NCBI GenBank assembly: GCA_964392085.1
Contig: CAYMOV010000005.1
Span: 5,343 to 69,342 of the forward strand
Length of the DNA stretch: 64,000 bases
Source of the DNA: an uncultured bacterium
GTDB taxonomy: Bacteria > Oederibacteriota > Muellerivitia > Muellerivitales > Muellerivitaceae
Reading direction: 5' to 3'
The notes beneath the pieces were generated by a model. That model saw nothing but the letters and a program-made list of their open reading frames with translations. It ran no database searches and was not told the DNA's origin. How positions within the stretch are numbered: the first letter of the stretch is position 1; every line of letters starts with the position of its first letter. The position numbers and the translations under genes are program-made. Of the stretch, positions 1,872-64,000 are shown piece by piece.

Positions 1872-2642
1872 TTGGATATGATGTTTGAAATGGATATAAG
1901 CCCCGGCCTGTCGAAGACCTTCCCGACTAGTGACGGGGTTTCCATCGCCGTGACCCTCTCCCCCTCCGCGAATTCCGGTCGCCTGGTCATCCTCTCCCCC
2001 GGGTTCGCCCAACACCGGAACACTCCCGTGATGCGCCAACTGGCCCAGGGCCTCACGGACTTCGGGGAAGTCGCGGCGTTGGACCACCGGGGGACCGGCG
2101 GAAGCGGGGGCCGTTACGGCTTCGGCTGGAAGGAATACCTGGACCTGGAACCGCTCCTGGAATGGGGACGCCGTCGGGGAAAACAAACGGTCCTGGTCGG
2201 CTGTTCCATGGGCGGTTACCACTGCCTGAGGGCCGCGGCCGCCTGGCCCCAGTTCGTGGACCGACTGTTGATGGTATCTCCCCCGTCGGTTTTCGAGGAT
2301 GTCCTGGGGTCCGGCGGCGCTTGGCGGCAGGCCCTCCACGTCTCGAAGGATTGGAAGCTTTGGACCGTCCGGCTCCGGACCCGGCCCAACGTCTTCTTCC
2401 GCTACGGCCACCCCTTCCGGCCCAAACCCCCGGGCCGGGAACTGGCGGCCCAAATCCGGTGCCCCGCCCATATCTTGGCGGGCGAACGGGACCATTTGGT
2501 GTTCCCGTCTTTGAGCCGGGAGATCCATCGCGGCTTGGCCGGGAAGCGGAGTTGGACCTTGCGGAAGGGCGGCGAGCACGCCGAGGTGATGTATTTGCAG
2601 GACCCGGCGAGGTTTTTACGGTGGGTTGAACTGCATTTATAA
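1872..2642 (+). CDS. alpha/beta-fold hydrolase
   Basis: 256 aa. It has a GCSMGG nucleophile elbow (GxSxG) and the typical alpha/beta-hydrolase length and order. Confidence 0.75.
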   Translation: MDMMFEMDISPGLSKTFPTSDGVSIAVTLSPSANSGRLVILSPGFAQHRNTPVMRQLAQGLTDFGEVAALDHRGTGGSGGRYGFGWKEYLDLEPLLEWGRRRGKQTVLVGCSMGGYHCLRAAAAWPQFVDRLLMVSPPSVFEDVLGSGGAWRQALHVSKDWKLWTVRLRTRPNVFFRYGHPFRPKPPGRELAAQIRCPAHILAGERDHLVFPSLSREIHRGLAGKRSWTLRKGGEHAEVMYLQDPARFLRWVELHL

Positions 2643-2701
2643 ACCCGCGTCTTCAACGCCGACCCAGAAACCAGCCACACCAGTAAGTACCCCTCACCCA
2701 A

Positions 2702-2770
2702 CCCTCTCCCTCAAGGGGAGAGGGATAAAAAAAAACGCCCCGGCGGTTCCCCGCCGGGGCGTTTTTTTTA
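2702..2770. terminator. bidirectional Rho-independent terminator (two hairpins)
   Basis: There is a ccctctccc-tcaa-ggggagaggg hairpin. It is followed by an A-run, then the GC hairpin cgccccggcgg-ttcc-ccgccggggcg, then T8. Confidence 0.7.
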
Positions 2771-2812
2771 TTGCTTGGCCATCCGCTACCCGCTATCCCC
2801 CATCAGCGATTT

Positions 2813-3211
2813 TCAGCCCCCGCTTCCCACCTTGCGCGGAGCGCTGACCTGCTTCACCGACACCGTAGGGGGCTTCACCGCGGCGTTCGGGGCGTAACCG
2901 TGCGGCTTCTGCTGGTCGTGGCCGTGGTCGGTTTCATGGGGATGGTCATGATCGTGGGCGTGGTCGTGCCCATGTTCCTTCTCGTGTTCTTCCGCTTCCT
3001 TCTCGGCCTTGGCCTTGGCCGCCGCGTTCGTCTTGGCCATCTCGGCGCTTTGGGCCTCTTCGTCGATCCTCAGGTGGCACTTCTTATATTTCTTCTTGGA
3101 CCCACAGGAGCACTCGTCGTTGCGTCCCAAGGACTTGAGCCGTTCCTGCCAGCCCTCGCTGCCCAGGGCTTTCGCCGGGGCATCGGATTTCGCCTTTTTC
3201 TTGTCCGCCAT
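2813..3211 (-). CDS. SEC-C metal-binding motif protein with His-rich C-terminal tail
   Basis: Contains CSCGSKKKYKKCH (SEC-C motif) followed by a lysine/alanine-rich segment and EHEKEHGHDHAHDHDHPHETDHGHD. The internal ATG at 3211 is preceded by a GGTGGAG RBS. The longer ORF to 3421 has a non-protein-like N-terminus. Confidence 0.6.
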   Translation of the reverse strand: MADKKKAKSDAPAKALGSEGWQERLKSLGRNDECSCGSKKKYKKCHLRIDEEAQSAEMAKTNAAAKAKAEKEAEEHEKEHGHDHAHDHDHPHETDHGHDQQKPHGYAPNAAVKPPTVSVKQVSAPRKVGSGG

Positions 3212-13070: not shown

Positions 13071-15290
13071 TCAGGCGTTGAGGAACGTCTGGACCGCCTC
13101 GAGGAACAGCTGGGCTTCCTGCACCCGCCTCCCCGCCTCATCGCGGTCGGGGTTTTCCAGCTTCTGTTCGTGGTGCCTGAAGAAGTGGCCCGCGAACTGG
13201 GCGCTGGTGGCGTGCTTGGCGAAGTCCCCCGTCTCATGGAAGAGCGCGCGGAACTTCGAAACGGTCTCGTCGGCTCCGCCCACGTATTCCCGCAGGCGGC
13301 TCCTCACGCAGGCCTCCGCGGAGTGGATCATGGCCTGGTAGGCCAAACCGACGGCCCCCTTCTGGTTGCCCCCGTCGAGGGCCACCTGGGCCTCGAAGAT
13401 CTCGCTCTCGGCGGCGGTCACCGAGAACTCGGAGGGGGTCACCACTTCCCCGGCGCATTCCCCCTTGCCGATGTCACCGATGGTGAACTCCCGGGGATCT
13501 CCCCAGTCCTGGTAAAGGTCCGGCTCAACGTCGTGACTGGGCACCACCGCCAGGTCTTGGAGGCGGTTTTTGGTCTCCACCTTCCCCACCCGCTTCACGA
13601 ACCCGCCGAAGGACTCGCCGTCTTGGCGGTCCGAGGTGAACCACCCAAGGAGGCGGTCCACCACCTGGGGAATCCGCTTGGAGGGCACCGCGATCACGGC
13701 CTGGCCGTAGGCCCCCCCGTTGTTCTCCCATTGGCCCCCCAACACCACCTGGAAATGCGGCACCGCGTAACCGCCGGCTTTGCGGGACACCCCGAAGAAG
13801 CCCAAGTCCGAGAGGGGATGCTGGCCGCAGGAGTTGGGGCAACCCGACACCTTGATCTTCAGGTTCCGGACCTCGGGAGGCAGGGTTTGGAGCTTCGCGT
13901 CCATCTGTTCCGAGAGTCGGCGCCCCAGGCCCCGGGAGGCGGCGATTCCCAACTTGCAGGTGTCCGTCCCGGGGCAGGAGGTGATGTCCGAGATCGTCCC
14001 GGCGTTGGGGGCCGCCAGGCCGACGGCCCTCAAATCGGAGTAGAGGGCCGGCAGGTCCGACTGGGCGATCCAACGGAACAGCAGGTTCTGCTCGACGGTG
14101 GTGCGCACCGTGTCTTTCGTGTACTTGCGGGTCATTTCGGCCAACGCGCGGAGTTGGGAGCTGGTCAGGTCCCCCAGGGGCACCTGGACCGCCACCGTGG
14201 AATATCCGGCCTGGGCCTGGCCCCTTACGTTCTGGCGGGCGAAATCGAGGAAACCCTCCGGCAGCGAGGGGGGCAGGGTTCCGGAAACCCGGAGGGGGGA
14301 TTCCTTCTTATTCAATTGGGCGGCCGGCAGGCCCACCCACCGGGGGTCCGCCGGGAGGGTTTTCCGCTCCTCCAGGACCAGGCGGCGGAACTCGTCGATG
14401 CCCAGCTTGGCCACGAGGAACTTGATGCGGGCCGCGCCCCGGTTCTTCTTCTCGCCCAACCGGCCGAAGACCCGGGCCACAGCCTGTGTCAAGGGGAGGA
14501 TCTCGTCCGGGTCCACGAATTCCAGGAGTTTTTTAGCTTGGTAGGGCACGGGGCCGAGCCCGCCGCCCACGTAGGCGTCGAAGCCTCGTTTCCCGTCCCG
14601 GACCTTCGCGATGAAGCCCATGTCGTGCATCATCACGAGGCCGCAACCCTCGTTCTCGCAGCCCGAGAAGGCCACCTTGAACTTGCGGCCGAAATCCTGT
14701 GCGTCAGGGTGCCCGAGGAGGAAACGGAAGATGGCCTCGGCGTAGGGGGTCACATCGAAGGTCTCGCCGGCGCAGACGCCCGCCAGGGGGCAGGCCGTCA
14801 CGTTGCGAACCGAGTTGCCGCAGGCCTCCCGACTGGTGATGCCGCAAGCCGCCAAACGGCGCATCAGGTCGGGCGTGTCCTCGATATGGACGAAATGGAG
14901 CTGGAAGTCCTGGCGGGTGGTGATGTGGGCGACGCCGTCGGAATATTCCTCAGCGAGGTCGGCCATGGTCTCCAATTGCCCGGCGTTGGTGCCGCCCCAA
15001 GGGAGCTTGATGCGGATCATGCCGGGGGCGTGCCAATGGGTATCAGGGCCCTTCCAGGTGGAGGCGTCGGGATAGGCCAGTTGGCGGACCTGTTTCCCGT
15101 CGTTCCGGCGGCCGTTGTCGTACCGCTGGCCGTAGGCGCCCCGGCGAAGCCGCGTCTCGGCGAACACCCGGGGCTCGATCTTCCCCTGCTTATTCAGCTC
15201 GATCTGGGCCTCAAACCCGTCGATCTCCTGGGCCCAGTCCGGGGGCATCCGGCCTTCGAGTTTGGCTTTCCAGGTCTTCAGGTTCGGCAT
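13071..15290 (-). CDS. sir: nitrite/sulfite reductase hemoprotein (ferredoxin-dependent assimilatory sulfite reductase-like) with an extra ~130-aa C-terminal helical extension
   Basis: 739 aa with two NiR/SiR ferredoxin-like half-domain repeats. The siroheme/4Fe-4S Cys cluster is present: TSCPGTDTCKLG plus SGCPNSCGQH. A GAGGGA RBS precedes the ATG. Confidence 0.9.
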   Translation of the reverse strand: MPNLKTWKAKLEGRMPPDWAQEIDGFEAQIELNKQGKIEPRVFAETRLRRGAYGQRYDNGRRNDGKQVRQLAYPDASTWKGPDTHWHAPGMIRIKLPWGGTNAGQLETMADLAEEYSDGVAHITTRQDFQLHFVHIEDTPDLMRRLAACGITSREACGNSVRNVTACPLAGVCAGETFDVTPYAEAIFRFLLGHPDAQDFGRKFKVAFSGCENEGCGLVMMHDMGFIAKVRDGKRGFDAYVGGGLGPVPYQAKKLLEFVDPDEILPLTQAVARVFGRLGEKKNRGAARIKFLVAKLGIDEFRRLVLEERKTLPADPRWVGLPAAQLNKKESPLRVSGTLPPSLPEGFLDFARQNVRGQAQAGYSTVAVQVPLGDLTSSQLRALAEMTRKYTKDTVRTTVEQNLLFRWIAQSDLPALYSDLRAVGLAAPNAGTISDITSCPGTDTCKLGIAASRGLGRRLSEQMDAKLQTLPPEVRNLKIKVSGCPNSCGQHPLSDLGFFGVSRKAGGYAVPHFQVVLGGQWENNGGAYGQAVIAVPSKRIPQVVDRLLGWFTSDRQDGESFGGFVKRVGKVETKNRLQDLAVVPSHDVEPDLYQDWGDPREFTIGDIGKGECAGEVVTPSEFSVTAAESEIFEAQVALDGGNQKGAVGLAYQAMIHSAEACVRSRLREYVGGADETVSKFRALFHETGDFAKHATSAQFAGHFFRHHEQKLENPDRDEAGRRVQEAQLFLEAVQTFLNA

Positions 15291-15378
15291 GTATCCCTCG
15301 GGTCGATTGAAAAGATTGGGATGGCTAAACTAACCAATCGAGGGGGAAAAATCAACGGGAGGCCATTTCCGGGTGGGA

Positions 15379-17721
15379 TCAGGACCCCTCGATCACTAAC
15401 ACGCCCCGGGTGAGTTTCTCCGGGCCCTTGCGTACCACGTAATAGTGGATTCCCGGGGCCGCAGGTTTCCCTCCGGGGGATCGACCGTTCCAACGGACCC
15501 ATCCCCCGATTTCCATTTGGGTAAATACGGATTCGCCCGAAACCGTGTAAACGTCCAGTTCGGATCCCGGGGGCATGCACCATGCCTTCAGGGTCCCCCC
15601 AACCGCTTGGGAGGGGTTGTAGGGGTTGGGCCACACGTGAAGCGGTTGGACCGGGGTTGGGCTGGGGGGGATGGGGGTCACCGACCAGGTGGCCGTCGGG
15701 GTGTCCGTCCAGGTCATAGTCCAAGTGGCGGTGGGGGAATCGGTCGGGGTGTCCGAGGGTGAAGGGGTCGGGGTGAGGGTAGGGAAATCATCCACGACGA
15801 TGACCCCAGTTGGAGTGACGGTCCAGGTCGAGGTGAGGAGGGAGGTAAGAGTCGGGGTGAAGGTGGCCGTGGGGGTCGGGCTGGAGGTGGGCGTGGCGGC
15901 ACAGGAACGGACCACGAGGTTATCGAACCGGATCCGATTGATCCCTTGGATGAAATCGGCGTGAAATCCTACGCCCCCGGCCGGAAGGCTCATGTCGGTG
16001 AAATCGAAAAGGAGTGTCTCCCCCGAGCCAAAGTCCACGAAAGTCTGTTGCCGGGAACCCGACACCACCGTCCGGAAGTGGACCCAAGTCCCGGGGGGAT
16101 AAGCGGGGGTGGCCAATCCCGAACCGAAACCGACCCCATCCAGGTATCGGTACCCCTGGGTATCGGAAAACAACACCGCTTGCCAATGGGGGACCAGGTT
16201 CTCCGGGTTGGTGTTCATCAACACGCTGTAATAGTCCGCCACCGTCGGCGAGGTAATCGTCGCGCGGAAGGCCGAGCCGAAATCCCCATAGCCGTTATCC
16301 AGGTCCATCTCAGCGTCGAAATCGATGGTGTAATCCCGGCGGGACCAGCCCAGGAGCGAGTCCCCGGTGGGGGGCGACGTCACCTGTACAACGGGCCGTT
16401 GGTTGACCCCCAAGGGGGCGGACGCTGGGGCGCTGTTCCGGATGACCTGGGCGTTATCCGCGGCCGCGGGGCTTCCGATCGGGACGCCCGTTGCGGCGCC
16501 AAGGTAAGTCACGTTGGGATCGGAATAATAGGGGATATAGGATCCCGGCATGTAGGACATCAATGAAATGAACAACCCCGCCCCGGTGTTGATCTTGTAG
16601 CCGTAGTTATATCCGGACCCCGTGGGGATCCCCGCCGTCCCCCGGTCGTGGTTACAACCGTAGTTGTGGCCCAGTTCATGAGGGAACGCCACATCGGCCC
16701 AGGACGACAACACCACGGTCTGGTCACCCGGCATGTAGCCCACCCCCGCGATGGAGTTGTCGGACCGCCCCAGGAAAAGGCTCGCGTATTGCGCGCCATA
16801 GGTCGCCATCAGGCCGAACACCTCGTCCACATAGCCGTCGCCGTTGGCGGCGAATCGCCCAGGTCCAGGGGCAGGTTGCCCGAATCCGAATAGGGTGTTT
16901 CGGCGCAATAGACCAACCGGTCCTCGAGCCCGACCTGGCTGTTGTGCAGGGCCAAGTTCAGGACTCCCATGGCCAGGTCGATGACGGTCAGGATCCCCGG
17001 GGTCCCACCGGCGTAGGTCCTCGCGGTGGGGGTGTAGAGGATCAGGACTTGGTTGACCTTCAGGTTCTCGGCGTCCGGGCACATGCCGGAGGTGTCCTGT
17101 GGGACGACAGGCGGAAACCCCTCGGGGTTGTCGTAGGCCTCGGGCACGGCGGGCTCCCCCGGCCCCTCCGTTCCGCACTTGAACCGCGCGGACGGATCCT
17201 GGAGGAAGATCCGATGGACGCCTTCCCCCACATACCGGATTTGGAATCGTCCTCTCGTCGGATCAAAGACCGTGGCCGCGATCACCGGCCCCCGGGCGGC
17301 CAGGACCCACCAACCCCCATCCACCCCGTCGAGGGTTCCCGTCCAGACCACGCCTCCCCCGAGGGTCGGCCGCCGAAGGTCGCAGACCGCCCGGTAATCG
17401 GCTCCGACCAGGAGGTTCAGGGCCAGGGGCGGGGCTTCCCGAACGGGGACCAGGCCCGCCAGTTGACCGAGGAATTCGGGGGACACCCGCACGTACCGGG
17501 ATTGGAGGGCGGGGAGGTCAAGGGGCGGGACCTGGGCGGGTGGATCCACCGTGGGGAAAGCGGACGAAGGTGAGGGAGGCAAGGCGCCGGCAAAAAATGG
17601 TTCGCGCCCCGGGGGGGACAAGGGCCCACCCCAGGATCCCAACCACCGCAAACCATACCCGTCGTTTCGGTTCCATAGGTCCACTACACCATCCTACAGA
17701 ATAGGCATTCGGGGCATACAC
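15379..17721 (-). pseudogene. secreted metzincin (reprolysin/M12B-like) zinc metalloprotease with PT-rich linker and C-terminal sorting domain, split over three reading frames
   Basis: Frame C (17518..17721) encodes a plausible signal peptide, MEPKRRVWFAVVGILGWALVPPGA. Frame A (16809..17684) encodes the prodomain and the start of the catalytic domain, VLILYTPTARTYAGG...VYCAETPYSDSGN. Frame B (15379..~16860) continues ANGDGYVDEVFGLMATYGAQ...AFPHELGHNYGCNHD (HExxHxxGxxH), then SLMSY, a PT-rich linker, and VWPNPYNP...LVIEGS. The frame switches fall at a GGGG/CCCC run near 16850-16871 and a C4G7 run near 17600-17620. Confidence 0.6.
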
Positions 17722-17776
17722 TTGACCCCATCATACCCCGCGCCCCCCCATTCCGCCCCGTATGTAATGCATATTA

Positions 17777-17814
17777 AAAAAAAGGCCCGGCGCCCCCAAG
17801 GGGACGCCGGACCT
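17777..17814 (-). terminator. Rho-independent terminator of the 17835..19160 gene
   Basis: On the minus strand: ggtccggcgtcccc-ttg-ggggcgccgggcc followed by T8. Confidence 0.65.
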
Positions 17815-17834
17815 GGATTCAACCAACCGGGAAA

Positions 17835-19160
17835 TCAGCGGGCTTCGGCTTGCCCATCCGGATAGAAGAGTTTGTAGCTCCCGTCGCCCAGCAGCACCAT
17901 GACCTCGGTGATCCGGCCGTTGGCGTTCTCGGTGAACCGCGCGTCCGTGGCGCCGGACACCAGGAAGACCGGCGCGAAGGCCGGGGTGGCGCTCATGTCG
18001 TAGAGGAAGGCGTCGTTGGAGGCGCCGTAGATCTTGATGGCCCGGGTATTGTCGTGGCTCCAGAAAACCGTCCCGGAAGCCGAGCCCGAGGGGGCGGGGG
18101 CCGTCGCGGAATCCGGCTGGGTCACCGGATCAGCCGCGTCGCTGGCCGGGTAGTATTCCTTGTCCCGGTAGACATACACCACGTCCACCCGGGAGGGATC
18201 CTGCCACCACCAGTAGCCGTCGTTCCAGTAGCACCAACGGTCGAAGCTGTCGTCGTACCACCAATACCGGTCGCCGTAATAGCGGGTCCAGAAGCATTGG
18301 TCCCCGAGGTACCAGCCGTACCAGTTGTAACCCCACGGGTCGTTATAGTGGCAAAACCGGTTGCCGCCGTAATCGTGCCAGTAGTAGCGCCCCCGGACGT
18401 TTTCATCCCGGTTGTACCTTCCCACCTGGCCCAAGACCAAGCGGTTGTTCATGTAGACGTTCATGGACTTGGCGGCCGGCGGTCCGCCGGCGACGCGGGA
18501 CATCAGCGCCCTTCCGTCGGGTCCCCGTTGGGGCACCGCGACCCTCGATTCGGCCCGGGGGGTGCTCAACAGGTGGTCGCGCTCCCGGATCGGCGAGGGC
18601 CTTGGAACGCCCTGCAGGTGCGCCCGGTTCTGTTGATAGGTCCCAGGGTGGACGCCCGCCGGACGGCGGTATGAGTTGTCCCGTACCTGGTTCGACCGGT
18701 TTCCGGTCCTCGCGTCGTTCCCCAAACGAACCCGTGGGTTTTCCACGGGACGGGATTGCTGTCCGTTGTTCCCGGGACGGGCCTGCTGCCCGTTGGCCGC
18801 CGGGCGGACCCTTTGTCCCTGGACCCCGGCGTTTTGGCCGCCATTCGGGGCGACCCGGCCGATCAGGCCCGCGGGTTGTTCGCGTTGGGGCGCGGCCCTT
18901 TCCGTCCGCGATTGGGCGGCTCGGTGGGCCCGGACGGGCTGGTCCCCGGAAACCGTCCTGTCCACCCGGGTGTCGTCCCGGGTGGTCGACACGGTGTCGC
19001 GCGCCGGGGCATCCCCACGGTCATCGCTAGCCGAAGCCCGGTCGGGTCGGTCCACCCGGTCCGGACGGCTGTCTCCCGGGTCGTCCCGCCTGGCCAAAGC
19101 CGGAAGCGCGAGGGCAAACGCGAAAAAGGTGATGGCAAACAATTTGAGGTTCTGATTCAT
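17835..19160 (-). CDS. secreted hypothetical protein with an Arg/Asp/Gln-rich disordered region and an extremely Trp/Tyr-rich core
   Basis: Signal peptide MNQNLKLFAITFFAFALALPALA. Roughly 200 aa of low complexity follow. The aromatic core reads YYWHDYGGNRFCHYNDPWGYNWYGWYLGDQCFWTRYYGDRYWWYDDSFDRWCYWNDGYWWWQD and is followed by a ~100-aa beta-rich C-terminal domain. Confidence 0.7.
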   Translation of the reverse strand: MNQNLKLFAITFFAFALALPALARRDDPGDSRPDRVDRPDRASASDDRGDAPARDTVSTTRDDTRVDRTVSGDQPVRAHRAAQSRTERAAPQREQPAGLIGRVAPNGGQNAGVQGQRVRPAANGQQARPGNNGQQSRPVENPRVRLGNDARTGNRSNQVRDNSYRRPAGVHPGTYQQNRAHLQGVPRPSPIRERDHLLSTPRAESRVAVPQRGPDGRALMSRVAGGPPAAKSMNVYMNNRLVLGQVGRYNRDENVRGRYYWHDYGGNRFCHYNDPWGYNWYGWYLGDQCFWTRYYGDRYWWYDDSFDRWCYWNDGYWWWQDPSRVDVVYVYRDKEYYPASDAADPVTQPDSATAPAPSGSASGTVFWSHDNTRAIKIYGASNDAFLYDMSATPAFAPVFLVSGATDARFTENANGRITEVMVLLGDGSYKLFYPDGQAEAR

Positions 19161-19707: not shown

Positions 19708-22700
19708 TTATCGGAGCAGGACCAAAGGCAGGACATACCGGCGGACTGGAGTCGTCAACACCAGGTAATACAGGCCGTCCGAGAGCGGCGCGCCCCGCCG
19801 GTCCCGGGGATCCAAGGGGACGGACCATTCCCCCGCCTTGATATTCGTAAAGGACCACTCCGCGATTTTCCGGTAGGCCGTCGTGAAGACCGCGACGCGC
19901 ACCCAAGCCTGGGGACTTTCCCAGTTGGCCGAAAGGGTCAGGGGTCCCGTTCCCCGCCAGGGGTTTGGAAAGAGGACCGGGGGCTCCGGACCCACGCCCG
20001 CCGTCCCGGTCGGGGTCGGCGACGGGGACCCGGTCCAGGTCGGAGTGGCCGTCACGGAAGCCGTCGGCGTGCCCATAGGACTCGGTGACGGGGACGCAGT
20101 CTCGGTCGCGCTCGGTGTAACGGTCCAGGTGGACGACGGTGTTTCCGTCCACGAGGCCGTCGGGGTGGCGGTCCGGGTCGGCGGGGGCGGCGTTGCCGAA
20201 GGCGTAGGGCTTGAGGTGAGGGACGCCGTCCCGGTTGGAGAAGGCGTTGAAGTGTCGACCGGGGGCGCCGTCGGGCTAGGCGTCAACGTTGACGAATGGG
20301 TTGGGGTTGTTGTTGTAGTCGGCGTCCCACTCGCCGTCCCAGTCGGCGTTAAGGAAGCTGTCCCGCTCGCCGTGGGGCTTGGGGACGGGGACGCAGTCTC
20401 GGTCGCGCTTGGAGTCCGGGAGGGCGACGCCGTCGGCGTCCCGCTTGGGCTCGGGGAGGCGGTTGAACTGGCGGTCGCTGAAGCCGTGGGCGTAGCCGAC
20501 GGGGTCGGCGTAGTCGAATCCGTCGAGGTGCGGGTCGGCGAGGCGGTGGCGGTACTGGTCGCCGTCGCCGAAGCCGTGGCCGTCCGGGTCGGGGTCGCCG
20601 TAAACGTCGCGGATGGTGTCGGGGTGGCCGTGAGGGTCGAGGAATAGGTGGCCGTGAAGGTGGCTGTCCCAGTCGGCGTTGATGAAGCTGTCCCGCTCGC
20701 CGTGGGGCTCGGGGACGGTGACGGAGTCACGGTCGCACTTGGAGTCTGGGAGGGCGACGCCGTCGGCGTCCCGCTTGGGGTGGAGGTCCTGGTCGCCGAG
20801 GCCGTGGCCGTCCAGGTTCGGGTCGCCGTCAACGTCGCCGAGGAGGTCGGGGTGGCGGTGGGAGTCGAGGAAAAGGTAGCCGTGAAAGTACCCGTCCCAG
20901 TCGGCGTTAACGAAGCCGTCCCACTCGCCGTGGGGCTCGGGGACGGTGACGGAGTCACGGTCGCGCTTGGAGTCCGGGAGGGCGACGCCGTCGGCGTCCC
21001 GCTTGGGGTCGGGGACCGGGTGGACGTCGCCGTGGCCGTCAAGGTAGCCGTGGAGGTTCTGGTCGGGGTGGCGGTGGGCGTAGACGTCCAGGTCGGCGTG
21101 GCCCCCCCGATCAAGCCGTACACCACCAGCTGGCCGGCGGCCGGGACATAGACCTTCCCGTTGACGATGCTGGGCGGCGTGAACTTCACGTTGGCCGCCA
21201 CGGCGCTGTCCCGGGCCGCGTTTTGGGAGCTGTTGTAGAGCTCGGTGGCCAGGTTCGTGGCGTCGTAGGCGTGCAGGACCGCGGGGGTGCCGGGTTGGAT
21301 CGCCCAAACGATGCCGTTCGTCGTTCCGTTGGAGGACACGCTGGGAACGCAACCCGGGTAGGCGTAGGTGGCCGAGGTCTGGGAGGAGGCCGTGGTGTTG
21401 TAAAGGCCGTTCGCCAGGCTGAAGGCCCGGAGCACCTGCCCCGACATGCCCCAATAGACGAAGCCGTTGAAGATCGCGGGGTTGGTGAATCCCGCGTTGG
21501 TGGCGGCCGTCCCGACGTGGAATTCCTGGACGTCGTTGTCCGTCGCGGCGTTGTAATGTCCCATGTTGTCCCGGTCCACCAGGTACACCTCCCCCGTCTT
21601 GGCGCCTCCTGTCATGAGGTGGGGATGGGCCGCGCTGCCGTAGGAATCCGGCAAAAGCACGCCTCCGGTGGAGCCCAAGTCCTGGTCGGTGTTGCTGAGG
21701 GTGCCCTGGTTCGAGGGCGTGAAGTAGTCCGCCGGGGTGAGGGCCGTGACCCCGGCCGTCAGTTTGAGGAAGCTGTCGCCGTAGTCCCGCCCCCCCGTGT
21801 TGGCGTCGAAAGTGCCGTTCGCGGTGAGGACAAACAGGTTTCCTGAGGCATCCACCATCGGGGCCCCGCCGCTGTTCCAGAGGGACGCCTCGCTCCCGTC
21901 GGGCGCCACGTTGTAGACGATGGTCTGTTGGCTGATGTCCGAGGCGTTGTAGCCGATGATCCAGCCCTGGTAGGTGCCCCAGTTGTTCAGGTCACAGTGG
22001 GAGGTCCAGGAGGTGTAGATCACCCCGTTGGACTCGACCAATCCGCATCGTTCCTTGTAGGCCCGTGCATTGAAGGTATCCGTCGTCCCTCCCTGGCCCG
22101 TCCCCGGCACGCTGGCCTGGACCGTGGTGGGGCCGTTCGCCGCCTCGGCCCCGGAGGAGAGGTCGAGCGCGTGCAGGACCTGGTAGAACTGCGTCACGGG
22201 GCCCGCGGTCACCTGCTTGATCATCCCCACCAGGTAGATCTTCCCCTTCGCCGGGTCGATATAAGGCGTGTCGGTGATGCCGATCTCCGGGGTGATCTGG
22301 GTGCAATTCGCCACGTCGGCCAGGGCCACCGTGGTGACCCCGGCGGCCGCGTTCAGGAAACTGACCTGCCAAAGCGGCGCTTGGGGGGAATCGGCGTCGA
22401 AGGCGTAGACGCTGTCGTGCTCCGTGCAGACATAGACCACGTTGTGGTTGCCCTTGCCCAAAATCGCCTGGTTGGGGACGTAAAGGGGTTGGCCGTAAAT
22501 CTGGCCGTCGACCGCGTCGGAATACAGCTTGCCGAAGGTCGCTTGGTTGACGACCGACGTCGAGAGGATCGTCTCGTTGGGGTTGAGTCCCGTGCGGGAA
22601 TCGTCGTTATGGTAGGACAATAGGGGGGTCTGGCCCCAGGCGGCGCCCACGAGGGTGACCGAGAGGGCGAGGATCAAGTTGTGGGCAAGCCGCGCAGGAC

Positions 22701-22716
22701 GGAATAAGGGCGCCAA
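19708..22716 (-). CDS. secreted PQQ-like beta-propeller protein with triplicated Pro/Thr/Ser-rich repeats and a C-terminal sorting (T9SS/Por-type) domain
   Basis: Signal peptide MAPLFRPARLAHNLILALSVTLVGAAWG. The ~490-aa N-terminal domain has repeated PQQ-type blades (VYAFDADS, GKIYLVG, GNLFVLT, GEVYLVD, GFVYWGMSG, GKVYVPAAGQ). Three ~48-aa repeats TPSGTPTASPSRTPSATVTPSPSPSPTASGTASLTPTGTG follow. The C-terminus reads VLFPNPWRGTGPLTLS...LYYLVLTT. Confidence 0.85.
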   Translation of the reverse strand: MAPLFRPARLAHNLILALSVTLVGAAWGQTPLLSYHNDDSRTGLNPNETILSTSVVNQATFGKLYSDAVDGQIYGQPLYVPNQAILGKGNHNVVYVCTEHDSVYAFDADSPQAPLWQVSFLNAAAGVTTVALADVANCTQITPEIGITDTPYIDPAKGKIYLVGMIKQVTAGPVTQFYQVLHALDLSSGAEAANGPTTVQASVPGTGQGGTTDTFNARAYKERCGLVESNGVIYTSWTSHCDLNNWGTYQGWIIGYNASDISQQTIVYNVAPDGSEASLWNSGGAPMVDASGNLFVLTANGTFDANTGGRDYGDSFLKLTAGVTALTPADYFTPSNQGTLSNTDQDLGSTGGVLLPDSYGSAAHPHLMTGGAKTGEVYLVDRDNMGHYNAATDNDVQEFHVGTAATNAGFTNPAIFNGFVYWGMSGQVLRAFSLANGLYNTTASSQTSATYAYPGCVPSVSSNGTTNGIVWAIQPGTPAVLHAYDATNLATELYNSSQNAARDSAVAANVKFTPPSIVNGKVYVPAAGQLVVYGLIGGATPTWTSTPTATPTRTSTATLTATATSTRSPTPSGTPTASPSRTPSATVTPSPSPSPTASGTASLTPTGTGTFTATFSSTPTATPTSSATLTATRTWTATASATRTSTPSGTPTASPSQTPSATVTPSPSPSPTASGTASSTPTGTATFTATYSSTLTATPTPSATFTATPTRTATASATATSTATASPTRTSTDSTTPTPSATPTASATASSTASPSPSGTPTASPSRTPSATETASPSPSPTASGTASLTPTGTASGTPTTTTTPTHSSTLTPSPTAPPVDTSTPSPTGTASLTSSPTPSATPPPPTRTATPTASWTETPSSTWTVTPSATETASPSPSPMGTPTASVTATPTWTGSPSPTPTGTAGVGPEPPVLFPNPWRGTGPLTLSANWESPQAWVRVAVFTTAYRKIAEWSFTNIKAGEWSVPLDPRDRRGAPLSDGLYYLVLTTPVRRYVLPLVLLR
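20040..21120. repeat. tandem DNA repeats encoding the PT-rich linker of the 1002-aa gene
   Basis: Near-identical blocks at about 20348, 20688 and 20918, for example cgccgtggggctcggggacggtgacggagtcacggtcgc...gggagggcgacgccgtcggcgtcccgcttgggg. They generate the long alternate-frame ORFs in the track. Confidence 0.6.
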
Positions 22717-22985
22717 GGTTCCCTCGGACGGGATCCGCGAGGCGACCCCGTTTCATTGGATTGGAGAAGGGCGAATTGTACCGCAGGCCTGTTCAAATAG
22801 ATGGAAGGGGGCGAAAAGACGGGTTGGTGGGGGAAAACGCTCAACCCGGCGTTAACCTCAGGGGACCGACCATTTTTTGAGGTTGAATCCAAGGAATGAA
22901 CTGGGTCAGGCGGGGACCCATCGGTTTAAGGACGGGATTCCTGCCCTTGGGGCGACCCCGATCAAGCCGAACCGGGAGGTTCGAG

Positions 22986-23804: not shown

Positions 23805-23826
23805 TCATGAACGCGGGTCAGTCCCT
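23805..23826. repeat. 22-nt motif TTCATGAACGCGGGTCAGTCCC (copy 1 of 2)
   Basis: The motif recurs with 20/21 identity at 38922-38945 and includes the palindrome TTCATGAA. It lies in the 56-bp spacer between the helicase stop and the glycosyltransferase start. Confidence 0.4.
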
Positions 23827-23851
23827 GTGGTGATTTGTGGTTGTTGTTAGT

Positions 23852-58365: not shown

Positions 58366-59658
58366 TTAGAATATATTTACCTTATGAGAGTTCCCTTCCC
58401 GCTTTCCGGCCACTCCGTAATAATTCAACAGATATCGCATGGTAAGGCCCTGAACCAAAACGGAGAAGAGAACAACCCCGTAAGTGGCTGCCAGGATTAA
58501 ATCCTTTTCCGGCAGGTCCGGCAAGGAAAGGGCCATTGCGATCGAAAGCCCACCCCTCAAACCTCCCCACGTGAGAATAGAAACGATTCCTCTTCGGCTT
58601 TCGTTCCATTGGATGAATCGAATGGGAAGGATGACCGAAAGAAACCTTGAAGCCAAAACAACGGGTACGGCCCCCAGGCCTATCAGCAGGTTGCGCCCAC
58701 CTACAAAAGTGTCAAAAACCTTCAGACCGATTAAAAGGAATAACACAGCATTCAAGATGTCGTCCATCATTCCCCAAAAAGCATCAAAATGCTCCGCGGT
58801 TTTTTGACTCATGGCATATCGCTTGCCGTGGTTGCCGATCAAAAGCCCCGCCACCACCACCGCGATGGGGCCGGATACACCCAACCGGAAAGAAAGGGAG
58901 TACATAAACATGACCAAAGCCAACGTGATCAAAAGTTCTAACTGGTGATAATTGATGCTTTTGAGCATCCTGAACGCCATGTAGCCCAAACCTAATCCTA
59001 AGAGAACACCACCAACCACTTCCCGCAGGAACAACCAAAACACATAGAGAGGGGATAAGGAAAGGGCAGATCCTTCCCCCCCGATTCCCGCCAAAGAGGT
59101 TAGGGCGAAAAAAACGACGACTCCCACACCATCATTGAAAAGGGATTCACCGGCGATGGTGGCCTCCAATTCCTTCGGGGCCCTTAGTTCTTTTAGCAGT
59201 CCCAAGACCGCGATTGGATCAGTGGGTGAAATAAGCGCCCCAAATACCATGCAAACCAAAAGGGAGACCTCCATTCCCGAGGCTTTGAGAAGCGCATAAC
59301 TCAGTCCCCCTACCATTGCCGTTGAAAAGAGGACACCTAGGGTCGCCAATACGAGGATGGTCCATCGGTTGGCCTTCAAGTCCTTGAATTTGACGTGGAG
59401 GGCCCCCGCAAACAAAAGAAAACAAAGCATGCCATGCATTAAAACCCGGTTGAAGTCGATGCCCGCCAGGAAAGTATTCAGGCCCGCCTTCAGGTGCCAC
59501 TGGGGTAGAAGCCAGCCGGTCGCCAACATGAAGAGAGAACTGAAGAGGGCAATGCTCATGATGCCTGTGGTGGCCGGAAGCCGTAAGAACCGGTAATTGA
59601 GGTAGCCGAACGCCGCCGCCAGGGCGATCAAAACAGCCGCGATATCGAAAACAGTCAT
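58366..59658 (-). CDS. cation:proton antiporter (CPA1, NhaP-type Na+/H+ exchanger)
   Basis: 430 aa with about 12 TM helices and the TDP/ND motif region (ISPTDPIAVLGLL...GESLFNDGVGVV). Confidence 0.9.
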   Translation of the reverse strand: MTVFDIAAVLIALAAAFGYLNYRFLRLPATTGIMSIALFSSLFMLATGWLLPQWHLKAGLNTFLAGIDFNRVLMHGMLCFLLFAGALHVKFKDLKANRWTILVLATLGVLFSTAMVGGLSYALLKASGMEVSLLVCMVFGALISPTDPIAVLGLLKELRAPKELEATIAGESLFNDGVGVVVFFALTSLAGIGGEGSALSLSPLYVFWLFLREVVGGVLLGLGLGYMAFRMLKSINYHQLELLITLALVMFMYSLSFRLGVSGPIAVVVAGLLIGNHGKRYAMSQKTAEHFDAFWGMMDDILNAVLFLLIGLKVFDTFVGGRNLLIGLGAVPVVLASRFLSVILPIRFIQWNESRRGIVSILTWGGLRGGLSIAMALSLPDLPEKDLILAATYGVVLFSVLVQGLTMRYLLNYYGVAGKREGNSHKVNIF

Positions 59659-59659
59659 T

Positions 59660-61099
59660 TTAAGAATCCCCAGCTCTTCTTCGGCTTAACGATTCCAACC
59701 GGACAAGAGCCGGCTTAGTTGTCCCGGGTTTTCCCTCCGAGCTTTTTACGTGGAAAGCAAGGTGACGATACAAAGGGACCGGCATGATCAGTTTTCCCAC
59801 CCCTTGCGCCAGGAAAGCGCCGATCATGAAGGGAATCAAAAGCATGCTTTGATCCGTCATTTCCATAATAATGATGACTGCCGTCAATGGAGCCTGAACC
59901 ACTCCTGAAAAGAAAGCCACCATTCCAATCAATGCGCAAGCCTTTAATCCCGCCACTTGAAATAACTGGCCGGTGGTAAAACCCAATCCGGCTCCAATGG
60001 ACAAACAAGGGGAAAATATCCCCCCCGCCATGCCGGACAAATAGGAAAAGGCAGTGGTGAGCAGTTTTTCAGGGAAATAAAGGGATGGCAGGGTTCCCTG
60101 TGCGTTATCCATAAAACGCCGGGTCACTTCATAGCCCGATCCCGCCGTGTCACCGTTGGTAAGAACGTTGATCAAAGCGCAAATAATTCCACACACGAGG
60201 GCTTTTCCCCACCAGGACGAAGGAAGAATTCGGTATTTAGGGTGAGTTAGTATCTTTGAAAAAACACCTCCAAATATCCCGCCCAAGAGACCGAGTAGTA
60301 TGGCGATTGGAATCAGGCTTAATGCCGATCCCTTTACAACAGGGTGGCCAAAGTAAAGGTAATTGCCTCCGATGGCTTGTGCGGTAATTCCACCAACAAT
60401 GACGGCCAACATGACTATTCGCTTGAACTGGGCGAAGGAATGTTCGGCGATCTCCTCTAACGCGAAGGTAATGCCCGCCAATGGGGTGTTAAAAGCCGCC
60501 GAAATCCCAGCTGATGCACCCGCAATAAGGTAGGACTGAAGATCCAAAGTGCCGAAATAGCGGCGTGCATGCCGTGCCGTAAAGGCAAAAACTGAAGAAG
60601 CCACTTGCACCGTCGGGCCTTCCCGGCCAATAGAAGCCCCGCCCAGGATTCCGACAACACTTGATATGATTTTCCAAGCGGCTGTTTTAATGGACACCAA
60701 CGGCCCTGTCATTTCACCGCGTTTTCCGTTTTCCACCCCATCAATCGCCTGAAGCACTTGAGGTATGCCGCTCCCTTTGGCTTCAGGCGCAAATTTCACT
60801 ACCAGCCATGTCGCCATAAGGAACAGGCACGGCCCAAGCAGAAGCGCCAAATAAGGATGGCTCTGTAATCCTTTATTAAATACGCCCTGGGTCAAAGTTA
60901 TAAGTTCCGCATAGAAATAGGCGATGATACCCACCACGACAGCCGCCAACAATAATGAAGCCTGCATCGTCGTCTTAGGGTGGATGGGGTTCAATTCCCT
61001 AGCACCGGCAGAAATACCCTTTCCAATATGTGAAACCGACTTCGATAATTCGTCCTTGGCTTTCCTCAGATTCATCTTCCTTTGATTCTTAGGCGCCAC
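59660..61099 (-). CDS. ClC-family chloride channel / H+-Cl- antiporter
   Basis: It has the GSGIPQ, GREGPTVQ and GxFxP selectivity-filter motifs and about 10-12 TM helices. Confidence 0.9.
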   Translation of the reverse strand: MAPKNQRKMNLRKAKDELSKSVSHIGKGISAGARELNPIHPKTTMQASLLLAAVVVGIIAYFYAELITLTQGVFNKGLQSHPYLALLLGPCLFLMATWLVVKFAPEAKGSGIPQVLQAIDGVENGKRGEMTGPLVSIKTAAWKIISSVVGILGGASIGREGPTVQVASSVFAFTARHARRYFGTLDLQSYLIAGASAGISAAFNTPLAGITFALEEIAEHSFAQFKRIVMLAVIVGGITAQAIGGNYLYFGHPVVKGSALSLIPIAILLGLLGGIFGGVFSKILTHPKYRILPSSWWGKALVCGIICALINVLTNGDTAGSGYEVTRRFMDNAQGTLPSLYFPEKLLTTAFSYLSGMAGGIFSPCLSIGAGLGFTTGQLFQVAGLKACALIGMVAFFSGVVQAPLTAVIIIMEMTDQSMLLIPFMIGAFLAQGVGKLIMPVPLYRHLAFHVKSSEGKPGTTKPALVRLESLSRRRAGDS

Positions 61100-61593: not shown

Positions 61594-62478
61594 CTATGCC
61601 TTGACCGCCTCAAACCCGGATATAACGTCGAAAAGTTCCTCGTCGATGGTCATCTGGCGTTGCCGTCGGAACTTTCCGTTGAGGTCGACCAACAGGTCCC
61701 CAATGTTTTTTTCGGCCCGTTGCATCGCGGCCAACCGGCTCGCGTTCTCGCTCGCGAGGGACTCGGCGCAGGCCCGGAACAGGGAAACGAAAAGGTACTC
61801 CCGCAGGAACGCCCGCAAAGCCCCAGAGACGTCCCCCACGACATCGGGCGGCGACTTCGTCGGCCAGGGAAGTCCCTCCAGGTCCCGCCTCCAGGTTTCA
61901 TCCAAGGGAAGCAGCCGCTGGTGGACGGGCTCGTAAACCGCCCCGGTGGAGGGACGGTTGTAGAAAAGGTGGAGTTCAGGGGCCGGAACCCGGTCGCTCC
62001 CCGTTCCCTGTTCCACGAGGATCCGGCCGACCAGCGGCGCGATGGTCCCGACGGAGTTCGGCACATGATGGAGACCCACCGGCCGCAGGCCTTCGTCCGT
62101 CAGGCGGGCGTGAACCCTTTCCCCGATAGCCCACAACTCGGGTGGGCCCTTCAAGGCCGCCAACGTCCCGGCCGCGAACCGGGATACCCGCTCGTTGAAG
62201 GATCCCACCAGACCCTGGTCCGAACCAAACACGATGGCGCGCACCGGCGCCCCAGTCTTCCTCGGCTTCCAAGCGGGAAATTTGCGGCCCCTACCTTGTT
62301 GCCGGAGGAGGAGGCCCAGCCCCAGTTCCACCCCGCGGGTGTAGTCCTTGGTCGCCCGTACCGATTTCTCGTATTGCCCAATGCTGGAGGCGGCCATCGC
62401 CTTCATCGCCCGGACGACCGATCCAAGGTCACCGGCCGAACGGATCTTCCGCTTCAAGACCGCCGTGGAATCGCTCAT
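61594..62478 (-). CDS. atpG: F1F0 ATP synthase gamma subunit
   Basis: N-terminal [25 protein letters not shown] and C-terminal [26 protein letters not shown] match the gamma-subunit ends. The start overlaps the atpA stop as ATGA. Confidence 0.85.
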
Positions 62479-64000
62479 GGTGGGGCCTTGGGGCCGGCAA
62501 CCGCGTCCGCCTGGACCGCGGGTCCTGTTTTTGACCCCGGTTCGGCCGTTGGTTTCGGGTCAACCTTCGTTTCAGGCTTCGGTCCCGGCTCGGTGGAGGG
62601 CGGGGGTTCCTTCGGTGCGTCGGGTTTGGGGTCGGCTTTCTCCCCCGGCTTGGTTACAGGTTTCGCCCCTTCTTTCGTTTCCGGCTTCGGTCCCGTCTCG
62701 GCGCCGGGCGGGGGTTCCTTGGGGGCGTCGGGCTTGGGGTCGGCCTTCTCCCCCGGCTTGGTATCCGGTTTGGAACTGAAGCCCGCCAGCGCTCCCCGGG
62801 CGGTTTGGAGGATTTTCTCACGGTCCTCCCCGCCCAATTCCGGGGCGGTCAACAGCCTTCCGCGAAGTCCCTCCTCCATCTTCTCCGCCGCTTCACGCAA
62901 GGCCTTCTCCGCGTCCTTCATCTTGTCCATCGGCACCGCGTCGAAGAGGTCCGCGGAAAGGGCCAACAGGACCGCGATCTGCGCGGCCACCGTGACCGGG
63001 GAGGCCTCGGGTTGTTTGAGGCAGGCTCGGATCCGCCGCCCGTGTTCCAGCGTCTTTCGCGTGGCCTCATCCAGGCGGGCCCCGAACCGGGAGAAGGCCT
63101 CCAATTCCTCGAATTGCGCGAAGGCGAGCTTGAGGTTCCCCGCCACCGCTCGGTAGGCCGCGTGTTGGGCCTTGCCGCCGACGCGCGAAACAGACTTCGC
63201 GACGTCGACCGCCGGCAGCACGCCCGACTCGAAAAGGGTCGGTGAAAGGTAGATCTGCCCGTCGGTGATGGAGATCAGGTTCGTCGGGATATAGGCGGAG
63301 ATGTCTTGGGCCTCAGTCTCGATGATGGGCAAGGCGGTGAGGGAGCCCCCACCCAGTTCACCCCGGAGGTGGGTGGCCCGTTCGAGAAGGCGCGAGTGGA
63401 TGTAGAAGATGTCCCCCGGAAAAGCCTCCCGGCCCGGCGGTCGGCGCAGCAGCAGGGACAACTCACGGTAGGCCCGCGCGTGGTGGGTCAGGTCGTCGTA
63501 AACGATCAATACATCGCGCCCCGCCTCCATGAAGGCCTCCGCGACGCTGGTCGCGGCGTAAGGGGCGATGTAGGCGAGGCCCGGCGGGTCATTGCCCGCG
63601 GCCACGATGACGACGGTATAGCGCAGGGCGTCCTTTTCCCGAAGGGTCGCGATGGCCTTCGCGACGGCGGACGCGCGCTGGCCGATGGCGCAATACACGC
63701 AGAGGACCCCCTGTTCCCCTTGGTTGATGATGGCGTCGATGGCCAGGGTGGTCTTGCCTGTCTGGCGGTCGCCGAGGATCAGTTCGCGTTGGCCCCGCCC
63801 CACGGGAATGAGCGCGTCGATGACCTTCCAACCCGTTTGGAGGGGAACCTGGACGGGCGCGCGGTCCATGATGGGCGGGGCGGGACGCTCAATCGGAAGG
63901 CGCCGCCCAGCGGCCGGCGCCTCCCCGCCATCGAGGGGGCGGCCGAGCGGGTCGATCACGCGCCCCAGCAACCCCTTTCCGACCGCCACGTCCATGACCC
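62475..64000 (-). CDS. atpA: F1F0 ATP synthase alpha subunit (5-prime partial, runs off window) with ~110-aa Pro/Lys-rich C-terminal extension
   Basis: GDRQTGKT (P-loop) and the alpha-subunit body are present. After the canonical C-terminus the protein continues [35 protein letters not shown]..., which is repeated twice. Confidence 0.9.
62490..62790. repeat. tandem ~108-bp repeat encoding the atpA PK-rich tail
   Basis: Two near-identical copies of ggtttc.ggcttcggtcccg.ctcgg.g..gggcgggggttcctt.g.gcgtcgggtttggggtcggc.ttctcccccggcttggt. Confidence 0.55.

Follow-up and report, generated by a model that had tools for sequence, protein, structure and literature searches.

The gene for a secreted reprolysin-like metzincin lies on the minus strand of the window (the whole 64,000-nucleotide stretch of DNA analysed here), from 17676 to 15379, and six-frame translation finds that it is not one ORF. 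All of the parts described here are on the minus strand. The start codon is an ATG at 17676, opening MEPKRRVWFAVVGILGWALV, and belongs with the signal-peptide segment MEPKRRVWFAVVGILGWALVPP (17613..17676), which shares its frame with the C-terminal part of the gene; the segment that this ATG opens, MEPKRRVWFAVVGILGWALVPPG, has a basic n-region and a 14-residue hydrophobic core, as in signal peptides. Translated in its own frame, the ATG is followed by a stop after 52 codons (stop codon at 17518-17520). The first frame change, site 1, is at 17607..17617, where the plus strand has four Cs (17607-17610) and then seven Gs (17611-17617), to give C7G4 on the coding strand. The prodomain and the N-terminal half of the catalytic domain (16861..17606) are displaced by +1 nt with respect to both flanking parts. 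At site 2 (16857..16860), in the codon for Gly273, one base has been lost, and the remainder of the gene (15379..16856) returns to the frame of the start codon and runs to a stop codon at 15379-15381.

The remainder begins with the second half of the catalytic domain, in which the zinc motif HELGHNYGCNHD is at 16680-16645 and the putative Met-turn region, SLMSY, is further downstream at 16566-16552. There follow a domain of approximately 170 residues without a family assignment (16407-15895), a Pro/Thr-rich linker (about 15897-15643) and a C-terminal domain of approximately 90 residues (15642-15382). The zinc motif, the Met-turn and the linker had all been assigned to this part of the gene from the first reading of the sequence, and each was located there. 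The same reading, which rightly described the metzincin gene as interrupted (the interruption consists of two one-base lesions), had distributed it over three frames; there are two. The ORF that carries the signal peptide (17518..17721) and the ORF that contains the remainder (15379..17178, 599 residues) have a common frame, 17721 and 17178 both being 0 mod 3, and the ORF at 16809..17684 (291 residues) is the only piece in another frame, with 752 nt shifted. The lesions are thus a gain of one nucleotide at site 1 and a loss of one at site 2, so that the overall length is unchanged.

Public gene calls treat the middle piece as a separate ‘gene’ of 291 residues (16809..17684), in which the middle frame continues beyond site 2 for 17 codons to a TGA at 16809-16811. 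The 3′ piece is started by these calls at an ATG of which the A, at 16809, is shared with that TGA; its product is P0001, of 476 residues, and the stop of the 291-residue ORF and the ATG of the 476-residue ORF form a TGATG overlap. On the 3′ side of the upstream gene (17835..19160) there is a terminator-like hairpin on the minus strand (17783..17814; 14 pairs, then a T-rich run), and the protease gene would therefore need a promoter of its own within 17677-17782. No sigma-70-like promoter was found in 15200-17900, which includes 17677-17782, the sigma-70 consensus being one that may not be that of the host. Rfam and tRNA scans gave no match to an RNA gene in the window.

Three other regions of the window, all on the minus strand, are of separate interest. 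At about 19708-22716 there is an ORF of 1002 residues with no Pfam match on record, which contains (20564-21045) 2.1 copies of a 228-nt (76-residue) tandem repeat at 87% identity, with diverged copies nearby. Across 58366-61099 the GC content falls from approximately 64% to approximately 51% over two membrane-protein genes, which by eye resemble a cation/proton antiporter (430 residues) and a ClC-type chloride channel (479 residues); this low-GC segment may be horizontally acquired. Finally, two adjoining genes at 61594-63995 appear by eye to encode the gamma and alpha subunits of ATP synthase, the alpha-like protein having a C-terminal extension of approximately 120 residues that is rich in Lys, Pro and Glu and contains repeated units.

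The repaired protein and the positions of the lesions

When one G of the G7 run is deleted and one base is inserted at site 2, the result is an ORF of 765 residues with no other defect. The repaired protein matches Reprolysin_4 (PF13583) at 28.8 bits, against a gathering threshold of 22, and Reprolysin_5 (PF13688) at 29.1 bits, against 27; the precomputed family matches of the fragment P0001 are weak. In an alignment with four homologues, H333, E334, H337, G340, H343 and D344 are invariant and make up the extended zinc motif HExxHxxGxxHD. SLMSY aligns with TVMAY or TIMAY of the homologues, and on this alignment can be taken as the probable Met-turn. Five intact homologues, with 31-46% identity, are colinear with the repaired protein, and signal peptides occur at the equivalent place in the homologues P0014, P0018 and L003. 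In both P0014 and L003 (33% identity) one uninterrupted ORF extends from the signal peptide through the zinc site, across both of the sites that are disrupted in the window.

The same boundaries are obtained from a much larger sample. With the 291-residue ORF as query, phmmer recovered 1,561 relatives in an exhaustive search of 1.84 billion representatives. None of their alignments starts before residue 27-32 of this ORF, and they stop at about 275-278; these limits coincide with the two sites, and the majority of the matched proteins extend hundreds of residues further. As the homologues of the family are in one frame, and as homology to the middle ORF has its edges at the two sites, it is the copy in the window that is broken.

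The first frame change had been placed at the C4G7 tract, and this is confirmed: site 1 contains one base too many, and dropping one joins the signal peptide to PPGREPFFAGALPPS. The second had been placed at a run of four Cs at 16868-16871, from which it has to be moved. D271 and L272, invariant in the alignment with four homologues, are encoded downstream of this run, where the middle frame is still in use, whereas R274 onward, including G281, is in the other; site 2 is therefore in codon 273, at 16857-16860, some 8-11 nt away from the run. The closest relative, P0014 (46% identity), has the DNA sequence GAC CTG GGC CGC, to which GAC CTG GGC GA corresponds in the window. The alignment of the repaired protein with its homologues is free of gaps at site 2, both for P0014, where VDLGRLSTVGDGYLEEV is matched by LDLGRFAANGDGYVDEV of the repaired protein, and in the comparison of DLGRFAANGDGY with DLGRLSTVGDGY. 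As judged from these alignments, site 2 is the loss of one C of a CC doublet, in neither a homopolymer run nor a slippage-prone tract.

The C-terminal part of the protein has been harder to classify. It had been called a sorting domain; there is indeed a C-terminal domain of approximately 90 residues, and its matches to sorting families fall below threshold, both for CHU_C (E=2.7e-4, 21.4 bits, cut-off 27) and for the C-terminus of PorZ (E=0.0016). A second copy of the domain was not found in the window.

Searches of GTDB genomes, of JGI metagenomes and by word index in protein collections found no orthologue of more than 50% identity that covers both sites. The scan of GTDB genomes gave only L002, from a FCPU426 MAG, with 41% identity to the middle domain of approximately 170 residues; that of JGI metagenomes gave one homologue, L003, intact to the edge of its contig; and the word-index searches returned the fragments of the window itself and three homologues of 31-35% identity, with nothing else. 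The only close relative is L004 (ERZ27245399), with 86% nucleotide identity, which covers the C-terminal 394 residues only and reaches neither site. P0018, a protein of 292 residues that ends near site 2, was considered as a recurrent instance of the split and rejected, as the gene is cut by the end of its contig and the agreement is a coincidence.

Two of these relatives provide some information on the domains that follow the protease. In L004 (positions 3-1187) an extra segment of approximately 170 residues (SCVPTPIVLLDSG...FTPADCGF) is present between the middle domain and the Pro/Thr-rich linker and is missing in the window, such that domain content differs between close lineages. In L002 (JAHFCG010000186.1, positions 2212-3090) the middle domain (NPENNPPHWQ...GFHADFIQ) is part of a membrane-anchored protein of 292 residues that has no protease domain, which implies that it is a mobile module. 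The sole Pfam hint for this domain is 3keto-disac_hyd, at E=0.049.

Recurrence of the lesions in other assemblies

Four contigs from other assemblies contain the locus. These are L001, from the Logan assembly of SRR8464962 (two SNPs in 3,344 nt, gap-free), and three contigs from ENA: L005 (ERZ27245408; a 49-kb contig with four SNPs in the gene, which is gap-free), L006 (ERZ27245394; 97.9% identity, with the differences mostly upstream of the gene) and L007 (ERZ27245400; one SNP). The ENA contigs are named k141_, in the style of MEGAHIT. Both lesions are carried by all four, with 1-4 SNPs with respect to the window, and no gaps, within the gene. At site 2 the bases are those of the window in every case. 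At site 1 three of the four are identical to the window and the fourth, L005, reads CCCCCAC instead of C7, which is of equal length and still out of frame. The middle ORF is 291 residues long in each of the four sequence variants of its 90% cluster in a collection of 15 billion proteins, and the exact products of 476 and 291 residues are present in several public sources.

Such contigs are informative because separate assemblies can decide between a sequencing error and a real frameshift without raw reads. An error, in sequencing or in assembly, would mean that the gene is truly intact and that the lengths of homopolymers have been mis-called. The nature of site 1, a C4G7 tract of the kind that some platforms miscount, gives this explanation a foothold, as does the fact that two miscounts would cancel in length; it requires, however, that the same bases be mis-called at both sites in four other assemblies, under other accessions and by other assemblers, despite the SNPs that distinguish them, and that the interrupted tract of L005 should nevertheless be out of frame. 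Moreover, site 2 is off any homopolymer. The window contains 22 runs of G or C of at least seven nucleotides, several of them within long uninterrupted ORFs, including that in the sulfite reductase gene at 13712, and in the 10 kb to each side of the gene no other split gene has been called. Homopolymer error, which had been raised as one of three possible origins of the split, is on these grounds extremely unlikely.

A second possibility raised at that stage was that the tracts are slippage-prone and phase-variable. The G7/C7 tract of site 1 would then be a contingency tract, at which slipped-strand mispairing toggles the protease on and off, and its position just after the signal peptide is typical of such switches. 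There is also a precedent in the seven-G tract of Mycobacterium tuberculosis glpK, which frameshifts at 3.14e-8 per generation in Mycobacterium smegmatis (PMC10334774), and this tract provides a bacterium of high GC content with a reversible switch (PMC10334774; bioRxiv 10.1101/717272); a low-rate, reversible switch at a seven-nucleotide run of G or C in a GC-rich bacterium is thus not without example. At the level of the consensus, however, the five assemblies contain no polymorphism in tract length, and in one haplotype the run is interrupted (C5AC) at equal length. Nor is the tract exceptional amongst the other runs of this size in the window. Restoration of site 1 alone would, in any case, still leave the gene broken by the lesion at site 2, a CC doublet outside any repeat. 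We consider phase variation to be highly unlikely, if marginally less so than error.

The contigs are best read as showing that the two lesions are fixed, at the level of assembly consensus, in the population sampled, a minority of which could still have the gene in frame. It should be noted that the five assemblies may represent a single population, as the samples could share a study or a site. Of the three origins initially proposed, that of a pseudogene with two independent frameshifts is the one borne out by the gap-free recurrence of both lesions in the four other assemblies.

The contigs also differ from the window outside the gene. Within 17696-17888, which covers the 3′ end of the upstream gene together with intergenic or promoter DNA, L006 and the window differ at 12 positions, by an insertion of 9 nt and by an indel of 1 nt, as against two positions in 905 nt of the adjoining pseudogene, a pattern that looks like mosaic recombination at the locus. 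In the comparison of L005 with the window the sole indels in 20.8 kb are approximately 39 nt that are extra in L005 between two genes (23808-23834) and an intergenic difference of 1 nt, T against TT, at 22805.

Probable inactivation of the gene and comparison with known systems

There are eight differences between the window and L005 over the 20.8 kb compared, and four of them are in the 2.3-kb gene (p=0.007). This excess over the flanks fits a relaxation of constraint on the gene; alternatively, the cluster of SNPs could reflect a small recombination tract. The region bounded by the two frameshift sites contains all seven SNPs amongst the lesion-bearing haplotypes; four (17448, 17453, 17491 and 17612) are within 165 nt, and the 1.5-kb C-terminal part of the gene has zero SNPs in the two contigs that cover it. 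In the frame of homology, four of the seven are synonymous and three are non-synonymous, a split that is slightly more synonymous than the neutral expectation, though not significantly so (p about 0.08-0.13).

Comparison with L004 reaches further back. Over 215 aligned C-terminal codons (dS 0.39) dN/dS is 0.24, as against 0.085 for the adjacent sulfite reductase in the same comparison; a value of 0.24 implies that most of the divergence between the window and L004 built up under purifying selection. Apart from the two lesions, no further stop or indel was found in the gene. Taken together, these two observations suggest that inactivation was recent, both the loss of function and its timing being read here from comparison of sequences.

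The conclusion that function has been lost would not apply if the gene were still expressed in spite of its lesions. Runs of C are known as sites at which tRNA-Pro is prone to +1 slippage, and the run at site 1 makes some slippage on CCC_CCC_C conceivable; the two shifts cancel, and recoding would thus take the form of +1 slippage there and a −1 shift at site 2. At the second of these steps, however, there is no slippery heptamer of the form X_XXY_YYZ (the sequence is C CTG GGC GAT), and the homologues examined across both sites are in a single frame there, so that the shifts are no conserved feature of the family. Alternatively, the fragments might be made separately and reassemble. The TGATG overlap physically permits coupled translation of the two ORFs, and the catalytic residues are intact; against this, neither fragment has a signal peptide and each has only half of the catalytic domain. 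The division of SNPs in the middle frame into four synonymous and three non-synonymous might be taken as a trace of selection on a product that is still made, but the synonymous excess is, as stated, not significant. That the gene is expressed by either route is very improbable. No greater likelihood attaches to the more specific proposal that the double shift is tolerated or used, in which slippage by the ribosome or by RNA polymerase on CCC_CCC_C, with a correction at codon 273, would yield a low level of full-length secreted protease, or in which the coupled fragments would assemble.

In all likelihood, therefore, the locus is a genuine pseudogene, in which the gene for a secreted metzincin of the reprolysin-like (M12B-type) group was inactivated recently. 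The ancestral protein would have consisted, in order, of a signal peptide, a prodomain of approximately 180 residues and a zinc-protease domain with HExxHxxGxxHD and the Met-turn, and then of the domain of approximately 170 residues, the Pro/Thr-rich linker and a small C-terminal domain that resembles the sorting domains of type IX secretion. One base would have been gained at site 1, in the C7G4 tract that follows directly on the signal peptide; independently of this, one C of the CC doublet in codon 273 would have been lost at site 2. As the catalytic domain is divided into halves between the ORFs of 291 and 476 residues, both of which lack the signal peptide, no exportable protease is predicted to be made. 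The hypothetical proteins of 291 and 476 residues, which the public calls list as unrelated, would accordingly be the halves of one dead metzincin gene. In biological terms this would be a common and unsurprising event, the recent loss of a secreted protease from an uncultivated bacterium rich in GC.

The known systems closest to the ancestral protein are the bacterial reprolysin-like metzincins (MEROPS M12B-like), with which it has in common the motif HExxHxxGxxHD, the Met-turn region, a signal peptide with a prodomain and the possession of C-terminal appendages, which are variable in this group. It differs from them in that the ORF in the window is broken twice and in that the best homologue is 46% identical; in addition, the catalytic domain is shorter by approximately 11 residues just before the HExxH helix. 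Mep72, a biofilm-associated metzincin of Pseudomonas aeruginosa (NCBIfam NF052434), gives a weak local match to residues 210-414 (E=8e-7), which spans site 2. The score of this match, 28 bits, is far below the equivalog cut-off (645), and the repaired protein is thus no orthologue of Mep72.

With the glpK tract of M. tuberculosis the locus shares a seven-nucleotide run of G or C in the 5′ part of an ORF, a GC-rich genome and the state of a +1 insertion. Unlike glpK, it is without length variation among samples, has a second lesion outside repeats and includes one haplotype in which the run is interrupted. From ordinary bacterial frameshift pseudogenes, in which one-base indels occur in an otherwise intact ORF and gene callers split the remains into ‘hypothetical proteins’, there is no essential difference; even the opposite signs of the two lesions are to be expected approximately half of the time for two independent indels of one base.
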